This document shows positions 26,074 through 32,000 of a stretch of DNA of 32,000 nucleotides, one piece after another. The notes beneath the pieces were generated by a model, which did no database searches, was not told where the DNA came from, and saw nothing but the letters and a program-made list of their open reading frames with translations. A program made the position numbers and the translations under genes. Each line of letters opens with the position of its first letter. Position 1 is the first letter of the stretch. Origin of the DNA: an uncultured Actinomycetes bacterium (lineage in GTDB: Bacteria > Actinomycetota > Actinomycetes > S36-B12 > CAIYMF01); NCBI GenBank assembly GCA_963843975.1, contig CAWJMG010000003.1, positions 2,340,001 through 2,372,000 on the forward strand, in the 5' to 3' direction.

Positions 26074-26568
26074 ATGAGCGACGAGTCCTCGCCGGCGGAG
26101 GTCATCCGCGCGGTGCTCGCCGAGCACGAGCTCGAGGCCGAGGAGACCGCTCCGGGGCGCTTCGTCGTCGTCCTCCCGGGTGAGCGCAAGCAGAAGACCA
26201 CGTGCTCGCTCGTCGTCGGCGAGCACGCGCTCACCGTGCAGGCCTTCGTGGCACGGCACGTCGACGAGAACGCCGAGGCCGTCTACCGCTGGCTGCTCGA
26301 GCGCAACCTCGCGACGTACGGCGTCTCGTTCGCCGTCGACCACCTCGGCGACATCTACCTCACCGGCCGGCTCCCCCTCGGCTCGGTGACGCCGGACGAG
26401 GTCGACCGCATCCTCGGCTCGGTGCTGGAGTACGCCGACGGCTCGTTCAACACGATCCTCGAGATGGGCTTCGCGAGCGCCATCAAGCGCGAGCATGCGT
26501 GGCGCGTCAGCCGCGGCGAGTCCACCGCCAACCTGGCCGCCTTCACGAACCTGACCGACCACCCCTGA
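26074..26568 (+). CDS. YbjN-domain protein (Rv0487-like, conserved next to mshA)
   Basis: 164 aa from ATG 26074 (the in-frame tail of track ORF 25057..26568). ...[30 protein letters not shown]...YRWLLERNL... resembles the YbjN/putative sensory transduction family. Synteny supports the call. Confidence 0.7.
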
Positions 26569-26579
26569 CCTTCCGTTTT

Positions 26580-26635
26580 CGCCCCTTAGGGTCACAAAGC
26601 GCCCTTCAGGGGCACTTTCGCGTCCACAACTCCGG
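26580..26635 (+). repeat. 56-nt intergenic element, copy A (CGCCCCTTAGGGTCACAAAGCGCCCTTCAGGGGCACTTTCGCGTCCACAACTCCGG)
   Basis: Matches the reverse complement of 30890..30945 at 49/56 positions without gaps, including a perfect 17-mer CGCGTCCACAACTCCGG and a perfect 16-mer CGCCCCTTAGGGTCAC. Ends 52 nt upstream of the gpmA ATG and is co-oriented with it. Confidence 0.85.
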
Positions 26636-26686
26636 TTCTCTGACCAGCCTGACCGTGCGCCCACCGGCTGCGGCAGGATGGTGCTC

Positions 26687-27445
26687 ATGAGCGACGCGCC
26701 GTACACCCTGATCCTGCTCCGCCACGGCGAGAGCGAGTGGAACGCCAAGAACCTCTTCACCGGCTGGGTCGACGTCGACCTCAACGAGAAGGGCGAGCGC
26801 GAGGCCCTGCGCGGCGGCGAGCTCCTCAAGGAGTCAGGCCTGCTGCCCGACCTCGTCCACACGAGCCTCCTGCGCCGCGCGATCCGCACCAGCCAGATCG
26901 CGCTCGACGCCGCCGACCGCCACTGGATCCCGGTCACCCGCAACTGGCGCCTCAACGAGCGCCACTACGGCGCCCTGCAGGGCAAGGACAAGAAGGCCAC
27001 CCTCGCGGCGTACGGCGAGGAGCAGTTCATGCTGTGGCGCCGGTCGTACGACGTCCCGCCGCCCGCCATCGAGTCCGACGACGAGTTCGCGCAGACGCAC
27101 GACCCGCGCTACGCGTGGATGCCGCCGGAGATCCTGCCCGCGACCGAGTGCCTGAAGGACGTCGTCCACCGCCTGCTGCCGTACTGGGAGGACGTCATCG
27201 TCCCCGACCTGCGCACCGGCAAGGTCGTGCTCGTCGCCGCGCACGGCAACTCGCTGCGTGCGCTGGTGAAGCACCTCGACGGCATCTCGGACGCCGACAT
27301 CGCCGGCCTCAACATCCCCACCGGCATCCCGCTGGTGTACCGCCTCGACAGCAACCTCAAGCCGACCGTCCCCGGCGGCGAATACCTCGACCCGGAGGCT
27401 GCCGCGACCGCTGCCGCCGCAGTGGCCAACCAGGGCAAGGCCTGA
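26687..27445 (+). CDS. gpmA: 2,3-bisphosphoglycerate-dependent phosphoglycerate mutase
   Basis: [27 protein letters not shown] (RHGE motif), [19 protein letters not shown]. Start set at ATG 26687; track ATG 26678 is an alternative. Confidence 0.93.
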
Positions 27446-27457
27446 TCCAGCACGCGT

Positions 27458-27504
27458 ACGACGAGGGCCCGCGACCGCTCCGGCGGAACGCGGGCCCTCG
27501 TCGT
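27458..27504 (+). terminator. Stem-loop ACGACGAGGGCCCGCG-N15-CGCGGGCCCTCGTCGT after gpmA
   Basis: Perfect 16-bp stem starting 13 nt after the stop. Read directly. Confidence 0.7.
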
Positions 27505-27604
27505 CGCGTCCGATAGGTGACGACCTCCAGCATTCCCGCCGGAGGACGTCGCCACCGGAGGCCCGTCAGTGCCAAGGTGGGACCACCTACCTCGGGGAGT
27601 GGCC

Positions 27605-28819
27605 ATGCGCCGACTGTCGTTCGCTCTCGTGCCGGCGATGGTCGCCGGCCTCCTCGTGATCGGTGCGGGTCCCGCCTCCGCCGACACCACGATCGTGTCG
27701 AAGACCGGCCTGCCCGCAGGGTGGACCTTCACGAACTTCCGGTACGACGGCAAACCCGGCGACTCGACGTACCAGCACGTCGAAGGCCCGGCAGGCGTGC
27801 CCACCGGGATCGGCAGCCTCCAGCTGAACCACGGGCTGCACACCTTCAAGATGGACCTGCACTTCACGACGGGCGTCGCCACGCCCGCCGCCGACATGAC
27901 GACGTACGAGATCACCTACCGCTCGACGACGACGTTCAACGTCGACCTCGGCTTCACCGCGCCCGGCATGGACGCGTCGGCAGTGGCGAAGGTGGAGCTT
28001 CCCGCGAGCGACACCTGGACCACGGTCGACCTGCTCGCGGAGCCGATCCACGTGCTGGTCGATCCGCACTTCTCGGAGATCCCAGGAAGCCCCTTCACAT
28101 GGGCGGCCCTGAAGACGGCGTTCCCAGGCGGCTCCATGGGGTCGGGCACCATCGAGGTGTGGACTCAGAAGACCGACACGGTCTGGCTCGACACCGTCCG
28201 CTTCGGCTCGGCCGGCGCGGTCACGACGTGGGACTTCGACACCGACCTGATCCCCGTGATCACCTCCAGCACCGCCACGGTGTCGCTCAAGGCCGGCGCG
28301 TCGACACCCCTGTCGGGGCGCGTCAAGCGGCCGTCGGGCGACCCGATCGCGTCGCTGCCCGTGGACCTGTGGACCAAGGTCTGGGGCACCGGCACCTGGG
28401 TGAAGGCGCAGACGGTGCTGACCGGTGCGGACGGCGCGTTCACCACGACATTCACACCCGTGAAGCAGACCTACGTGCAGTGGCGGGTGAACCAGAGCGG
28501 CTACGCCGAGGCGATCTCAGCGACCCGACGCGTGGACGTCACGACCAAGATCTGGGCCACCCCCGCGGATACGACGGTGTCGCGCCCGGATCGCGTGCGC
28601 ATCTTCGGCAAGGTCGCACCGAACCTCGCCGGCACGACCGTCACGCTGCGCCGGGTCGGCTCGACGACCGCACTGGCGACGGCGACGATCAAGGCAGACT
28701 CGACGTACGGGGTCAGCGCGCTCCTGCCGCGCGGCACGTGGACCGTGTACGTGACCACGCAGTCCGGTGGAGGGCTGATCGGCGGCAAGTCCGCGGGCAT
28801 CAAGGTCGTCGTCAGCTGA
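27605..28819 (+). CDS. Secreted hypothetical protein with C-terminal tandem beta-sandwich (Ig/CarboxypepD_reg-like) repeats
   Basis: ORF 27569..28819. Start set at ATG 27605 after GGGGAG. Signal peptide MRRLSFALVPAMVAGLLVIGAGPASA. Thr/Val/Trp-rich beta-strand composition. No catalytic motif recognised. Confidence 0.65.
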   Translation: MRRLSFALVPAMVAGLLVIGAGPASADTTIVSKTGLPAGWTFTNFRYDGKPGDSTYQHVEGPAGVPTGIGSLQLNHGLHTFKMDLHFTTGVATPAADMTTYEITYRSTTTFNVDLGFTAPGMDASAVAKVELPASDTWTTVDLLAEPIHVLVDPHFSEIPGSPFTWAALKTAFPGGSMGSGTIEVWTQKTDTVWLDTVRFGSAGAVTTWDFDTDLIPVITSSTATVSLKAGASTPLSGRVKRPSGDPIASLPVDLWTKVWGTGTWVKAQTVLTGADGAFTTTFTPVKQTYVQWRVNQSGYAEAISATRRVDVTTKIWATPADTTVSRPDRVRIFGKVAPNLAGTTVTLRRVGSTTALATATIKADSTYGVSALLPRGTWTVYVTTQSGGGLIGGKSAGIKVVVS

Positions 28820-28867
28820 GACAACCGTGCACCTGCACTGCGGCCTGCGCGGCGGCAGGATGACGCC

Positions 28868-29584
28868 ATGACCGAGCGCCTCGACCTGGCCGACTCCACC
28901 CTGCGCGAGTGGGACGCCGTCGTCCTGGACTCCGACCGCGAGACGGGCATCGTGCTCGACCGCAGCGCCTTCTACCCGGGTGGCGGCGGCCAGCCGCCGG
29001 ACCACGGCGTGCTGCTGTGGGGAGGCGTCCAGACCCGCATCGTCGGTGCCCTGAAGGGCGACGACGTCCGCCTGGTCGCGCACGACGACGATCCGCTGCC
29101 GCCCGTCGGCACGGGGGTGCGCGGCGCGATCGAGGACGGCCGGCGTACGGCGCTGATGCGCACGCACTCGGGCCTGCACCTGCTGTCGGGCGTGGTCTTC
29201 CGCGACTTCGGCGCGCTCGTTACCGGCGGCAACATGGAGCCGCTCGAGGCTCGGCTCGACTTCAACCTCGAGAGCGTGCCCGAGGGCTTCCGCGACGCGA
29301 TCGAGGCGGCGTGCAACCTCGAGGTCGACGCCGACCGCGCGATCTCGGCGTACGAGCTGCCGCGCGAGGAGGCGTTCGCGATCCCCGACATCATCCGGAC
29401 GGCGACCAACCTGCTGCCGCCGACGATCGAGATCGTGCGGATCGTCGACATCTCGGGCCTCGACGTCCAGGCCGACGGCGGCACGCACGTGGCGTCGACG
29501 CGCCAGATCGGTGCGATGCGCGTGGTCAAGATCGAGAACAAGGGCAAGGGATTCCGCCGCATCCGCATCGCCCTCGAGCCCTGA
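28868..29584 (+). CDS. alaX: Alanyl-tRNA editing protein (AlaX-M type, tRNA_SAD domain)
   Basis: 238 aa. FYPGGGGQPPDHG, the zinc/editing motifs HSGLHLL and ADGGTHV, and VKIENKGKGFRRIRI. Resembles free-standing AlaRS editing domains. Confidence 0.8.
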   Translation: MTERLDLADSTLREWDAVVLDSDRETGIVLDRSAFYPGGGGQPPDHGVLLWGGVQTRIVGALKGDDVRLVAHDDDPLPPVGTGVRGAIEDGRRTALMRTHSGLHLLSGVVFRDFGALVTGGNMEPLEARLDFNLESVPEGFRDAIEAACNLEVDADRAISAYELPREEAFAIPDIIRTATNLLPPTIEIVRIVDISGLDVQADGGTHVASTRQIGAMRVVKIENKGKGFRRIRIALEP

Positions 29585-29630
29585 CCCGAACCGCACAGAT
29601 CTTCCCTTAGGGAAGGAAGGCGCAGTTCAA

Positions 29631-29665
29631 CTTCACGATTCCTCCCTAAGGGAAGAATCGTGAAG
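29631..29665. terminator. AT-rich hairpin CTTCACGATTC-N13-GAATCGTGAAG between the convergent alaX and GNAT genes
   Basis: Perfect 11-bp arms. The loop contains TCCCTAAGGGA. Lies 4 nt from the GNAT stop and 47 nt from the alaX stop. Confidence 0.55.
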
Positions 29666-29668
29666 CGG

Positions 29669-30208
29669 TCAGAGGCGCAGGACGTGGTCGATCAGCTCGG
29701 TGCCGTACCACTCGGTGGTCGGGCCCAGCCGGGTCATGCCGAGGCGGTCGCAGACGGCGAGGGACCGCGCGTTGTCGGCGTACACCACGGCGTGCACCTC
29801 GGTGAGGCCGTGAGTGCGCGCCTGGTCGAGCAGTGCGCGCGCAGCCTCCGTCGCGATGCCGAAGCCCCACGCGGCGGGGTGGAGATGCCAGCCCACCTCG
29901 AGCGCGTCGGAGCCCACGCCATCAGAGCGGGTGAGCGGAAGCAGCAGCACCGTCCCGCACGGCTGCGGCGAGATCCCCTGCACGCCAGGGGTTTCCACCG
30001 CCCAGAGACCGTCGAGCGGGGCGGTCGGAGGCGTGCTCCACCGCTGGATGCGGGCTCGCGCTGCATCGAGGTCGACGCACGGGGCGGGCGTCGCCCCGAG
30101 CCATCGGTAGACCTCCTCGCGCGAGTAGATGTCGAGGACGGCCTCGGCGTCGTCCTCGGTCCAGGACCGCAGCAGCAGGCGGTCGGTCGTGAGCGTGGGC
30201 GACGGCAT
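29669..30208 (-). CDS. GNAT family N-acetyltransferase (RimJ/RimL-like)
   Basis: Start set at ATG 30208 (MPSPTLTTDRLLLRSWTEDDAEAVLDIYS...). EVGWHLHPAAWGFGIATEAARALL is the acetyl-CoA binding region. The track ORF 29669..30676 is over-extended. Confidence 0.85.
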   Translation of the reverse strand: MPSPTLTTDRLLLRSWTEDDAEAVLDIYSREEVYRWLGATPAPCVDLDAARARIQRWSTPPTAPLDGLWAVETPGVQGISPQPCGTVLLLPLTRSDGVGSDALEVGWHLHPAAWGFGIATEAARALLDQARTHGLTEVHAVVYADNARSLAVCDRLGMTRLGPTTEWYGTELIDHVLRL

Positions 30209-30267
30209 GCGTCGATCTTGCGCCGTGCGCCGACCCAGCGTCAGGCGTTCGCGAGCACCGGCTCGCG

Positions 30268-30819
30268 TCAGCCCTTGGGGGCGTCGCCGGCGAGGTCGGC
30301 CACGGCCGTGCGGAACTCGGCGTCGACGTCGGCGCCGAACAGCACGAAGCGGATCACGTCGAACGCGTCCGGGTGCTCGCGCGCATAGGCGCGCGCCGCG
30401 CGTACGGCGACAGGTGCCGCCTCGGCAGCGGGATAGCCGAAGATGCCGCACGAGATCGCGGGAAAGGCGATGGTGCGCGCGCCGAGGTGGTGCGCGACCT
30501 CGAGCGAACGCCGGTGGCAGGAGGTCAGCTGCGTCTCCTCGTGGCCGTGCGGCTCTCGGTAGCGCGGCCCGACGGTGTGCACGACCCAGCGTGCAGGCAG
30601 TCGGCCGGCGGTCGTCACCACGGCTTCGCCGACGGGGAGGCCGTCCGGCCACGTCGTGCGCCGCACCTCCTCGCACGCGCGGAGGATGGCATCGCCACCA
30701 CGCGCGTGGATCGCACCGTCGACTCCCCCGCCGCCGAGCAAGGTGCTGTTGGCCGCGTTCACGATCACGTCGACGTGCTGCTCGGTGAGGTCACCGCGTT
30801 CGGTCTCGATGAGCGTCAT
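30268..30819 (-). CDS. Macro domain protein (O-acetyl-ADP-ribose deacetylase / MacroD-YmdB type)
   Basis: Start set at ATG 30819, 7 nt after GGAGG (MTLIETERGDLTEQHVDVIVNAANSTLLGGGGVDGAIHARGG...AFPAISCGIFGYP). Canonical macro domain motifs. Confidence 0.88.
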   Translation of the reverse strand: MTLIETERGDLTEQHVDVIVNAANSTLLGGGGVDGAIHARGGDAILRACEEVRRTTWPDGLPVGEAVVTTAGRLPARWVVHTVGPRYREPHGHEETQLTSCHRRSLEVAHHLGARTIAFPAISCGIFGYPAAEAAPVAVRAARAYAREHPDAFDVIRFVLFGADVDAEFRTAVADLAGDAPKG

Positions 30820-30889
30820 CGCCGTACCTCCTGCTCCCCGCCATCCTCGCGCGGGTGCGGCACAGATGGGTGGTCGATGCCGACGTCGG

Positions 30890-30945
30890 CCGGAGTTGTG
30901 GACGCGAGGAGTCCCTTGAAGGGCGCTTCGTGACCCTAAGGGGCG
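30890..30945 (-). repeat. 56-nt intergenic element, copy B (inverted relative to copy A)
   Basis: The reverse complement reads CGCCCCTTAGGGTCACGAAGCGCCCTTCAAGGGACTCCTCGCGTCCACAACTCCGG. It ends 71 nt upstream of the macro-domain ATG (30819) and is co-oriented with it. Its 5' 10 nt overlap the end of the methyltransferase CDS and supply that gene's TAG stop (30936-30938). Confidence 0.85.
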
Positions 30946-31742
30946 GAATCGGCCGGGGCGACGTGCGACCAGGGGATGGTCAGCTCGCCGAGGCGCCAGC
31001 GCGACGGGCCGTCGAGCAGGGGCACGCCGGCCTCGCGCAGGGAGCGCACCGCGGTGATCCACCGCTGCCGCACGCCGAAGGATCCCTGGGGCGCTGCCGC
31101 GGCCCAGGCCCGGTCGAGCTGCTGCAGGAACGCGTGCACCGGCTCGCCCGGCACGTTGCGGTGGATGAGCGCCTTGGGCAGCCGCTCGGCGAGGTCGGAC
31201 GGCCGCTCGAGCCCGGCGAGGCGGGTCGAGAGGGTCAGCGACTCGGGCACCGCGGCACCGGCGCGCAGCAGCACCCACCACGCGTGCCGGCCGAGCTCGT
31301 CGCAGGTGCCCTCGACGAGGGCGCCGTCCGGTGCGAGCCGAGCGGCCATCGTGCGCCAGGCGGCCGCGACCTCGCCCTCGTCGTACTGCCGCAGCACGTT
31401 GAACGCACGCAGCACGACGGGCGACCGTCCGTCGAGCGGCACCTCGAACCCGCCCCGCCGGAACGACAGCGTGCCGTCGGCGTACGGCGCGGCCGCGGCC
31501 ACGCGGGCAGGGTCGATCTCGATGCCGACCACCTCGACGTCGGGCCGCACGGCACGCAGACGATCGCGGAGGTCGAGCGGCGTCCACGCAGCAGCGCCGT
31601 AGCCGAGGTCGACGACGACGGGGTCGGCGGATGCGCGCAACGGTGCGGCCAGCGCATGCGCGATCCAACGGTCGACGCGGCGCAGCCGGTTGGGGTGGGT
31701 GGTGCCGCGCGTGATCGTGCCCAGCGGGCGCGGCGGCGTCAC
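30936..31742 (-). CDS. Class I SAM-dependent methyltransferase
   Basis: Motif I VVDLGYGAAAWT, then VVGIEIDP and ..AFNVLRQY.. Start set at GTG 31742 (just after the upstream gene stop). The track ORF start at 31850 would overlap the upstream membrane gene. Confidence 0.75.
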   Translation of the reverse strand: MTPPRPLGTITRGTTHPNRLRRVDRWIAHALAAPLRASADPVVVDLGYGAAAWTPLDLRDRLRAVRPDVEVVGIEIDPARVAAAAPYADGTLSFRRGGFEVPLDGRSPVVLRAFNVLRQYDEGEVAAAWRTMAARLAPDGALVEGTCDELGRHAWWVLLRAGAAVPESLTLSTRLAGLERPSDLAERLPKALIHRNVPGEPVHAFLQQLDRAWAAAAPQGSFGVRQRWITAVRSLREAGVPLLDGPSRWRLGELTIPWSHVAPADSAP

Positions 31743-31746
31743 GCGG

Positions 31747-32000
31747 TCAGTAGCGCGGGCCGCGCGTGACCTGCGCCAGCTTGGTGCGGGCGTCGACGAG
31801 GTAGACGATCGCGGCGACGATGCCGACGAGACCGAGGAAGCCGAGCGCACCGGCAGTCGGGAAGCCGATGAGCGCGAGCGCCCCGCCGCCGATCACCGGG
31901 AAGAGCAGCTGGGCAGCGAGACCGCCGCCGGTGATGCCGAGCCACTGCCCCTTGGTGAGGCGGCCGATGGCGGCGTACGCCTGCCTCGAGTAGCGCAGTG
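31747..32000 (-). CDS. Hypothetical membrane protein (partial, N-terminus beyond right edge)
   Basis: My own translation of the minus strand gives ..LRYSRQAYAAIGRLTKGQWLGITGGGLAAQLLFPVIGGGALALIGFPTAGALGFLGLVGIVAAIVYLVDARTKLAQVTRGPRY*. Strong GC3 bias and two hydrophobic helices. Not in the ORF track because there is no start in the window. Confidence 0.6.
   Translation of the reverse strand, partial: LRYSRQAYAAIGRLTKGQWLGITGGGLAAQLLFPVIGGGALALIGFPTAGALGFLGLVGIVAAIVYLVDARTKLAQVTRGPRY

Follow-up and report, generated by a model that had tools for sequence, protein, structure and literature searches.

Short palindromic repeats that are scattered between genes have been well studied only in Proteobacteria, where the repetitive extragenic palindromic (REP) sequences and the related BIME and REPIN arrangements are maintained by RAYT transposases (PMC3116915, PMC3337134). 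Among Actinobacteria there is one comparable motif, TRIT of Mycobacterium, for which no maintenance mechanism is known; it is palindromic, is found in 147 copies that cluster tightly near -8 relative to the stop codon, and is restricted to the genus (PMC3152330). The 3' ends found at TRIT have recently been read as RNase III-like, dual-pattern cleavage and not as termination, and the Correia elements of Neisseria lie in 3' untranslated regions (UTRs) and form RNase III substrates (PMC13714241). The current study concerns two inverted copies, A and B, of a short element that precede gpmA and a macro-domain gene in a 32-kb stretch (the window; C3:2340001-2372000) of the genome of an uncultured Actinomycetes bacterium (G000; 4.19 Mb, 71.5% G+C, assembly 93% complete). 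In all likelihood these are two independent, ordinary members of a larger family, termed F1, which can with good confidence be described as a young and lineage-specific set of intergenic palindromes, dispersed through the genome in the manner of REP/BIME/TRIT repeats. Labels such as G007 stand for other genomes of the same genus.

The F1 family and its conserved hairpin

Copies A (nt 26580-26635, + strand) and B (nt 30890-30945, - strand) are identical at 49 of 56 ungapped positions and the mismatches fall in one patch, which reproduces the count of an earlier reading made without database searches (the sequence-only reading). A repeat search stretches the pair to 63 nt at 86% identity (26573-26635 / 30890-30952); it is the clearest inverted pair of the window, the next-best pairs reaching no more than 55 nt at 70-78%, and in a whole-genome blastn search A matches B at E = 1e-9. 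A genome-wide search for further copies, as the sequence-only reading had proposed, was carried out with blastn and iterated nhmmer until it converged, and places F1 at 29 loci. Of the three roles offered in that reading, the REP- or MITE-like (miniature inverted-repeat transposable element) dispersed repeat is the one that agrees with this number, with the mosaic palindromic architecture and with presence or absence of copies among close relatives.

The copies are mosaics of three modules, X (CCCCTTAGGGTCAC), Y (GYGCCCTTCAAGGGCRC, a hairpin with a TTCAA loop) and Z (GYGWCCACAACTCCGG; also given as GYGWCCAC(A/T)(A/T)CTCCGG). These are combined in three ways: type 1 (X-Y-Z, about 60 nt, 15 copies including A and B), type 2 (Z'-Y-X-Y-Z, a full palindrome of 89 nt, 7 copies) and type 3 (X-Y-X', a palindrome of about 52 nt, 7 copies). 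X and Y make one arm and the tip of a long, ~23-bp hairpin, to which Z adds a terminal tail. The complete palindromes are X-Y-X' and Z'-Y-X-Y-Z; A and B have the X-Y-Z form and can be called 'solo end' units. The small palindromes CCCT-T-AGGG and CCCTTC-AGGGG and the TAGGGT hexamer that had been pointed out in A and B are present, but are not special to these two sites, as they are constant in every copy of the family. The first of them is incidental, because a sister family, D, lacks CCCT-T-AGGG.

For the 14 copies of types 2 and 3, predicted folding energies run from -44 to -63 kcal/mol (z = -6 to -7.6). Copies A and B have folding z-scores of -2.4 and +0.5, which is no improvement on shuffled sequence; the 3' arm of both reads GCGTCC and not GTGACC, the partner of GGTCAC, and the arms no longer pair well. 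RNAalifold, applied to the X-Y-Z units alone, returned 8 invariant pairs and no covariation, and an Rfam cmscan of nt 26300-31200 gave no relevant match, the only hit being a chance one to atpB (E = 0.98). The sequence-only reading, which argued against a conserved RNA fold on the evidence at hand, is right for the two window copies; across the wider family, however, covariation gives strong support to a long hairpin.

Between F1 and D the arms differ at 5 of 14 positions (CCCCTTAGGGTCAC vs CCCGCTAAGGACAG), and each of these changes is compensated on the opposite arm. When 6 F1 and 12 D palindromes are aligned without gaps, both partners differ between the two families in 12 of the 23 pairs, and paired cells make up 83.6%. 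For covariation the score is 0.328, compared with 0.170 for shuffles (0 of 500 reach 0.328) and no more than 0.10 when the partner is slid. What is conserved is the hairpin: arm variants differ from genome to genome, and compensatory changes preserve the pairing.

Type-1 copies are clustered, with five pairs lying within 5 kb where 0.25 would be expected (Poisson p = 7e-6). Four of the five, A/B among them, have an X-outward, Z-inward geometry, and in relatives both members of local pairs are also filled, by D. The cargo of the five pairs consists of ordinary genes (GNAT, DapD-like, SDR, gpmA and others), and no transposase or nuclease was found among it. That A and B are inverted and bracket a segment, together with this significant pairing, could suggest that they are scars of a local duplication or inversion of the 4.3-kb, five-gene segment between them, as the sequence-only reading had allowed. 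The segment has the same gene order and orientation in G007, G020, G021 and G009, and so shows no sign of inversion. Neither is the other's nearest copy (by blastn, A is most similar to C3:2622860, with 54 of 55 positions identical, and B to C3:236789), and 27 more loci lie elsewhere. The chance that the pair arose in this way is negligible.

The clustered pairs, with both members retained in relatives despite the change of variant, could also be expected if the palindromic modules were double-stranded protein-binding sites of the chromosome, recognised by a nucleoid protein or gyrase as BIMEs are, and if local pairs marked domain boundaries; the covariation equally fits a symmetric dimer site. 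Compensatory changes over ~17 bp, however, suit a hairpin more than a short operator, the copy number (29 loci) is low, and no candidate binder is known besides the nuclease-type protein described below, so that this explanation is considered improbable.

Placement of the copies and turnover among relatives

The constant neighbour of type-1 copies is an upstream stop codon, not a gene start. In 13 of the 15, the X end comes after the stop codon of a gene that points the same way, at -9 to +25 nt in 12 cases and at 106 nt in one, and in two copies (B and C3:236789) the stop codon is supplied by the element itself. Palindromic copies behave similarly, 12 or 13 of 14 lying 8-44 nt from a 3' end, and over the whole family 26 of 29 loci are within 45 nt of the 3' end of a gene. 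The loci are divided among convergent (12), tandem (14) and divergent (3) intergenic regions, for which the expected shares are 12%, 56% and 32% (p = 2e-6). All seven type-1 copies in tandem regions are co-oriented with the genes (p = 0.008). A replication-strand cause of copy orientation was considered and rejected, as neighbouring copies 1-4 kb apart face opposite ways.

Within the window, copy A begins 5-12 nt past the TGA of a YbjN-like gene and its 3' end is about 51-52 nt ahead of the gpmA ATG (26687); the 3' end of copy B is 71 nt ahead of the macro-domain ATG (30819), and its other end overlaps the last 10 nt of the upstream coding sequence and provides the TAG. These distances, and the overlap, were correctly given in the sequence-only reading. 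With both copies co-oriented with the downstream gene, and a TANNNT-like hexamer and palindromes inside the element, it had been proposed that the repeat is a shared promoter, operator or 5' leader, which would co-regulate gpmA and the macro-domain gene. A co-oriented start is indeed found 35-155 nt downstream of 7 of the 15 type-1 copies. It is absent from the other 8, of which 6 sit between convergent genes, facing the 3' end of the next gene, and 2 are in divergent regions. The neighbour genes of the copies are functionally unrelated, and a consensus scan of promoters and terminators found nothing at the copies, and no sigma-70-like promoter in the region. Moreover, relatives without the element keep the gpmA-proximal upstream sequence, including a conserved hexamer (see below), and in G007, G020 and G021 the element at the orthologous site has been swapped for another variant. 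A regulatory role of this kind is very improbable.

The family has a narrow distribution. With a sequence-only covariance model, 6 of 24 genomes of the genus gave matches, ranging from weak to strong, and 16 genomes of other genera gave none; an exact-pattern scan of 185,579 species returned 3 stray matches only. G000 has 32 instances of the F1 arm pattern (AGGGTC-N7-GCCCNTNANGGGC), G007 and G005 have a single one apiece, and the remaining 25 genomes of the genus have none. The pattern of the sister family D (AAGGAC-N7-...) shows the reverse, with 30 instances in G007, 28 in G021, 3 in G020 and none in G000. G007 is the closest relative, with 91% DNA identity around gpmA.

All F1 loci were compared with G007, G020 and G021. 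At 11 loci there are clean empty sites in relatives, and at 8 (C1:316970, C3:152385, C3:153595, C3:1992139, C3:1993388, C3:2025193, C3:1462483 and C1:755382) the relatives have a D-type copy instead. One locus, the C3:2623738 site, is filled in G007, G020 and G021 by an unrelated palindrome, GAGTTACTGCCCAAA... The site of copy A illustrates the range of states: G007 has an orthologous copy with an arm (CCCCCTAAGGTCAC) intermediate between D and F1, G020 and G021 have a third variant, H (CCCCTAGGGTCGATCA-GGCAGTTCRACTGCAC...), G005/G006, G012, G015 and G010 have unrelated palindromes, and G009, G014, G016, G018, G003 and G002 have a short, empty spacer. At the site of copy B there is a D-type copy in G007, and H in G020 and G021. 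F1 is a young family, nearly restricted to this species, and its copies have been gained, lost and homogenised at the DNA level. Elsewhere in the genus, the same post-stop sites are occupied by unrelated families of strong palindromes (GAGTAACAGGTCGAATGGTCGC..., GAGTTACTGCCCAAA... and GATGAAGGGTCCAGGGGTTCGG...).

As the copies lie behind stop codons, the repeat would add a hairpin to the 3' UTR, which could shape or protect the 3' end of the upstream mRNA. Such an effect on upstream mRNAs is possible, but doubtful. A stronger version, which overlaps with the reading of F1 as a dispersed repeat family, would make the copies TRIT-like RNA elements selected by the host: the hairpins would end, process (e.g. 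via RNase III) or stabilise the upstream mRNA, a factor reading the double-stranded motif would keep the sequence uniform, and mobility would be secondary. The tight adjacency to stop codons, the co-orientation of X-Y-Z units with transcription, the covariation of the long hairpin and the precedent of TRIT (PMC3152330, PMC13714241) are all in keeping with this. The presence of unrelated strong palindromes at the same sites of relatives (site A in G005/G006, G012 and G015, and GAGTTACTGCCCAAA... at C3:2623738) suggests that some hairpin is wanted there. On the other side, a T-run does not come after the hairpin on either strand, the T-rich part of the element lying 5' and belonging to the palindrome, so that the feature of an intrinsic terminator (a G+C-rich hairpin, then a U-tract) is not seen in F1 copies; mycobacterial RNA polymerase requires the U-tract at intrinsic terminators (PMC3993855). 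Furthermore, the predicted folds of the window copies do not surpass those of shuffled sequence, the intergenic region at the corresponding site is short and empty in several relatives, and three copies are in divergent promoter regions. Selection of the repeats as 3'-end RNA elements is accordingly rated as rather unlikely.

Asymmetric copies of the D family in G021 and G007 retain the adjacency to stop codons, and often have the TGA at their extreme 5' edge, as in TGAATTCACCCGC. The D palindromes of G007 reach out to TGA...TCA, and one that lies between convergent genes could supply both stops.

Several points weigh against the description of F1 as a dispersed, REP-like repeat family. At the 11 empty sites neither a target-site duplication nor a sharp insertion boundary was seen; as regards the features of a MITE, palindromic ends are present and the only gene-bearing relative is a cassette of the sister families (see below). 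Genes were called with our own codon-bias caller, for which stops are exact and starts approximate. The orientation bias of the D family is weaker, with 6-7 co-oriented and 3 anti-oriented copies in tandem regions (G021, G007), so the orientation rule is a tendency and not a law. Covariation in a DNA palindrome fits an RNA hairpin, a single-stranded DNA hairpin or a cruciform, or a symmetric protein site alike, and cannot distinguish between them. A Y1/RAYT transposase (PF01797) had no match in G000, the assembly of which is 93% complete, although control genomes do match, and no transposase or nuclease gene bracketed by F1 copies was found in G000.

A candidate maintenance enzyme and the neighbouring genes

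A further sister family, F2, has ~30 intergenic copies in G000 and the same design as F1, namely a CCCTTAGGG palindrome with a TTCAA-loop hairpin. F2 copies adjoin F1 copies at four loci. Two inverted F2 copies (CTTCCCTTAGGGAAG + GTGCAGTTCAACTGCAC) bracket a gene that encodes an AbiEi_4 winged helix-turn-helix (wHTH) and a DUF559/REase_MTES_1575 domain. The layout of this cassette (G000:C3:1681100-1682420) is X2-Y2-Z2-GATCTTG, the gene, and then CAAGATC-Z2'-Y2'-X2', with the inner motif GTGATCTTG/CAAGATCAC, and its ends are X-outward and Z-inward, as in the A/B pair. Its orthologues are flanked by the local repeat variant in each genome examined: by variant H in G020, an H-like variant in G006 and variant D in G021; the frameshifted orthologue of G005 is flanked by a variant with a GCCC-type Y and a Z tail, CTGACCACAAGCT, that is much like that of F1. 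Two open reading frames (ORFs) of this genome, G000:C3:2613906-2615384 (- strand) and C3:1258562-1260559 (+ strand), are homologous to proteins from the DUF559 loci of relatives. A further DUF559 gene, C3:732247-733218, was set aside, as the palindrome on its flanks, ATTTGGTAGTGCTA..., shows no sequence relation to F1.

By analogy with RAYTs, a protein that combines the AbiEi_4 wHTH with a DUF559/PD-(D/E)xK nuclease may spread or maintain the F1 repeats, a suggestion to which we would give slightly less than an even chance. Since a phmmer search of six-frame ORFs brought up no F1-bracketed nuclease gene in G000, the connection of the protein to F1 is an indirect one, made through the sister families and through orthologues in other genomes. 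A broader proposal, put forward tentatively, is that the CCCTNAGGG/TTCAA-loop palindromes (F1, F2, D, H and others) of this genus together constitute a replicator system of the REP kind, in which a domesticated wHTH-DUF559 (Vsr-fold) nuclease takes the place of the RAYT tyrosine transposase. The rapid co-evolution of enzyme and arms would leave sister species with mutually exclusive variants that differ by compensatory arm changes, and the X-Y-Z units, A and B among them, would be the terminal repeats of cassettes, left as solo ends behind stop codons. The literature search found nothing relevant on actinobacterial REPs, and no paper that ties DUF559 to palindromic repeats.

Features of the window and the DUF559 gene are collected in the table. 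The gene names gpmA and Macro used in the sequence-only reading are borne out by Pfam; the 'methyltransferase' upstream of copy B has no Pfam match at E <= 0.001. The sole hint of an S-adenosylmethionine-binding fold in the latter (nt 30936-31742, - strand) is a VVDLGYG motif. Its orthologue in G007 stops at its own TGA, 9 nt ahead of the element (...WSHVRPTG*). The G000 ORF has lost that TGA, and its frame runs on for a few codons to the TAG of the element (...WSHVAPADSAP*).

The hexamer CAGGAT, just before the gpmA ATG and outside the repeat, is recognisable in relatives, with A, T and spacing unchanged, whether or not they have the repeat. These features persist throughout the genus, also in members that have no Shine-Dalgarno-like AGGA (CAGACT, GAGACT, CACAAT). 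On this comparison it is a probable -10 box of a leaderless gpmA mRNA, which would place the true start of gpmA at 26687 and not at 26678.

Inside the A-B segment, an F2 doublet lies between convergent AlaX-like and GNAT genes; it carries the sequences CTTCCCTTAGGGAAG / GCAGTTCAACTTC / TCCCTAAGGGA.

Table. Coordinates of the repeat copies, their modules and adjacent features (window positions unless prefixed by a contig)
Feature	Position	Strand	Basis or remark
YbjN-domain gene, stop directly precedes copy A	26074..26568	+	Pfam PF10722, E = 5e-22
Copy A, X-Y-Z (type 1) unit	26573..26635	+	repeat search, family alignment
Copy A, T-rich head	26573-26580	+	
Copy A, module X	26581-26595	+	GCCCCTTAGGGTCAC
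Copy A, module Y	26600-26615	+	CGCCCTTCAGGGGCAC
Copy A, module Z	26620-26635	+	GCGTCCACAACTCCGG
CAGGAT, nAnnnT hexamer 7 nt before gpmA ATG	26674..26679	+	genus comparison
gpmA (phosphoglycerate mutase, His_Phos_1), downstream of copy A	26687..27445	+	Pfam; ATGAGCGA... start conserved across genus
F2 doublet	29590..29665	.	CTTCCCTTAGGGAAG + GCAGTTCAACTKC; C3:2369604, C3:2369644
Macro-domain gene, downstream of copy B	30268..30819	-	Pfam PF01661, E = 8e-41
Copy B, X-Y-Z unit	30890..30952	-	repeat search, family alignment
Copy B, module X	30944-30930	-	
Copy B, module Y	30925-30911	-	
Copy B, module Z	30905-30890	-	
TAG in module X of copy B	30936..30938	-	stop of upstream ORF 30936-31850 (-)
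DUF559 gene	C3:1681275-1682297	-	AbiEi_4 wHTH + DUF559/REase_MTES_1575

Comparison with known palindromic repeats

Placing A and B in a repeat family removes a false lead, that of a common regulator for gpmA and the macro-domain gene. The family also accounts for hairpins behind stop codons, for a stop codon supplied by a repeat, and for intergenic regions that vary between close species. The genus is a tractable case for the study of such repeats, with mutually exclusive arm variants at orthologous sites, a hairpin kept by compensatory change, and a single nuclease gene of a different fold that has the local variant on both sides in all genomes examined. If the link to DUF559 is true, it would represent a second, independent enzymatic route to REP-type populations, and a candidate explanation for TRIT-like motifs.

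Two other types of small repeat share some features with F1. Like the Correia repeat-enclosed elements, which are MITEs of Neisseria, F1 copies are small and non-autonomous, with inverted ends and presence or absence among close relatives; Correia elements differ in having defined terminal inverted repeats with a TA duplication, as well as promoter and IHF sites, none of which were seen in F1. MIRUs are, like F1, actinobacterial, intergenic and oriented with the operon, and can overlap a flanking stop codon. They are tandem direct repeats carrying small ORFs, whereas F1 copies are single palindromic units.

The likeness to the REP/BIME/REPIN-RAYT systems is broader. F1 repeats are short, imperfectly palindromic, extragenic and dispersed, and are found singly or as inverted doublets, the latter folding into long hairpins (the 14 copies of types 2 and 3), with the mosaic combination of unit types known from BIMEs. 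As with REPs, variants are species-specific, and populations are passed on vertically at orthologous sites. A single-copy gene of nuclease type is flanked by repeats, in this case those of the sister families. Differences are that the F1 genome is without a Y1/RAYT gene (PF01797), the flanked gene being wHTH + DUF559 (PD-(D/E)xK), that the copy number is low (29 loci), and that the host is a high-G+C actinobacterium. Di Nocera et al. 2013 are said to describe a conserved GTAG or CGTC head on REPs. The F1 alignments lack such a head, and their ends are TTTTCGCCCC... and ...CAACTCCGG.

With TRIT, going by its published descriptions, F1 has in common an actinobacterial host, a sequence-conserved palindrome at gene ends that sometimes overlaps coding sequence, a narrow position relative to the stop codon (the X end of F1 at -9 to +25 nt in 12 of 15 copies), restriction to a genus, and the absence of a canonical U-tract. 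It differs from TRIT in its sequence and genus, and in its modular X/Y/Z architectures and the asymmetric solo form. Judged by these likenesses, the REP/BIME/REPIN-RAYT systems are the closest functional analogue of F1, and TRIT is its closest analogue among Actinobacteria.

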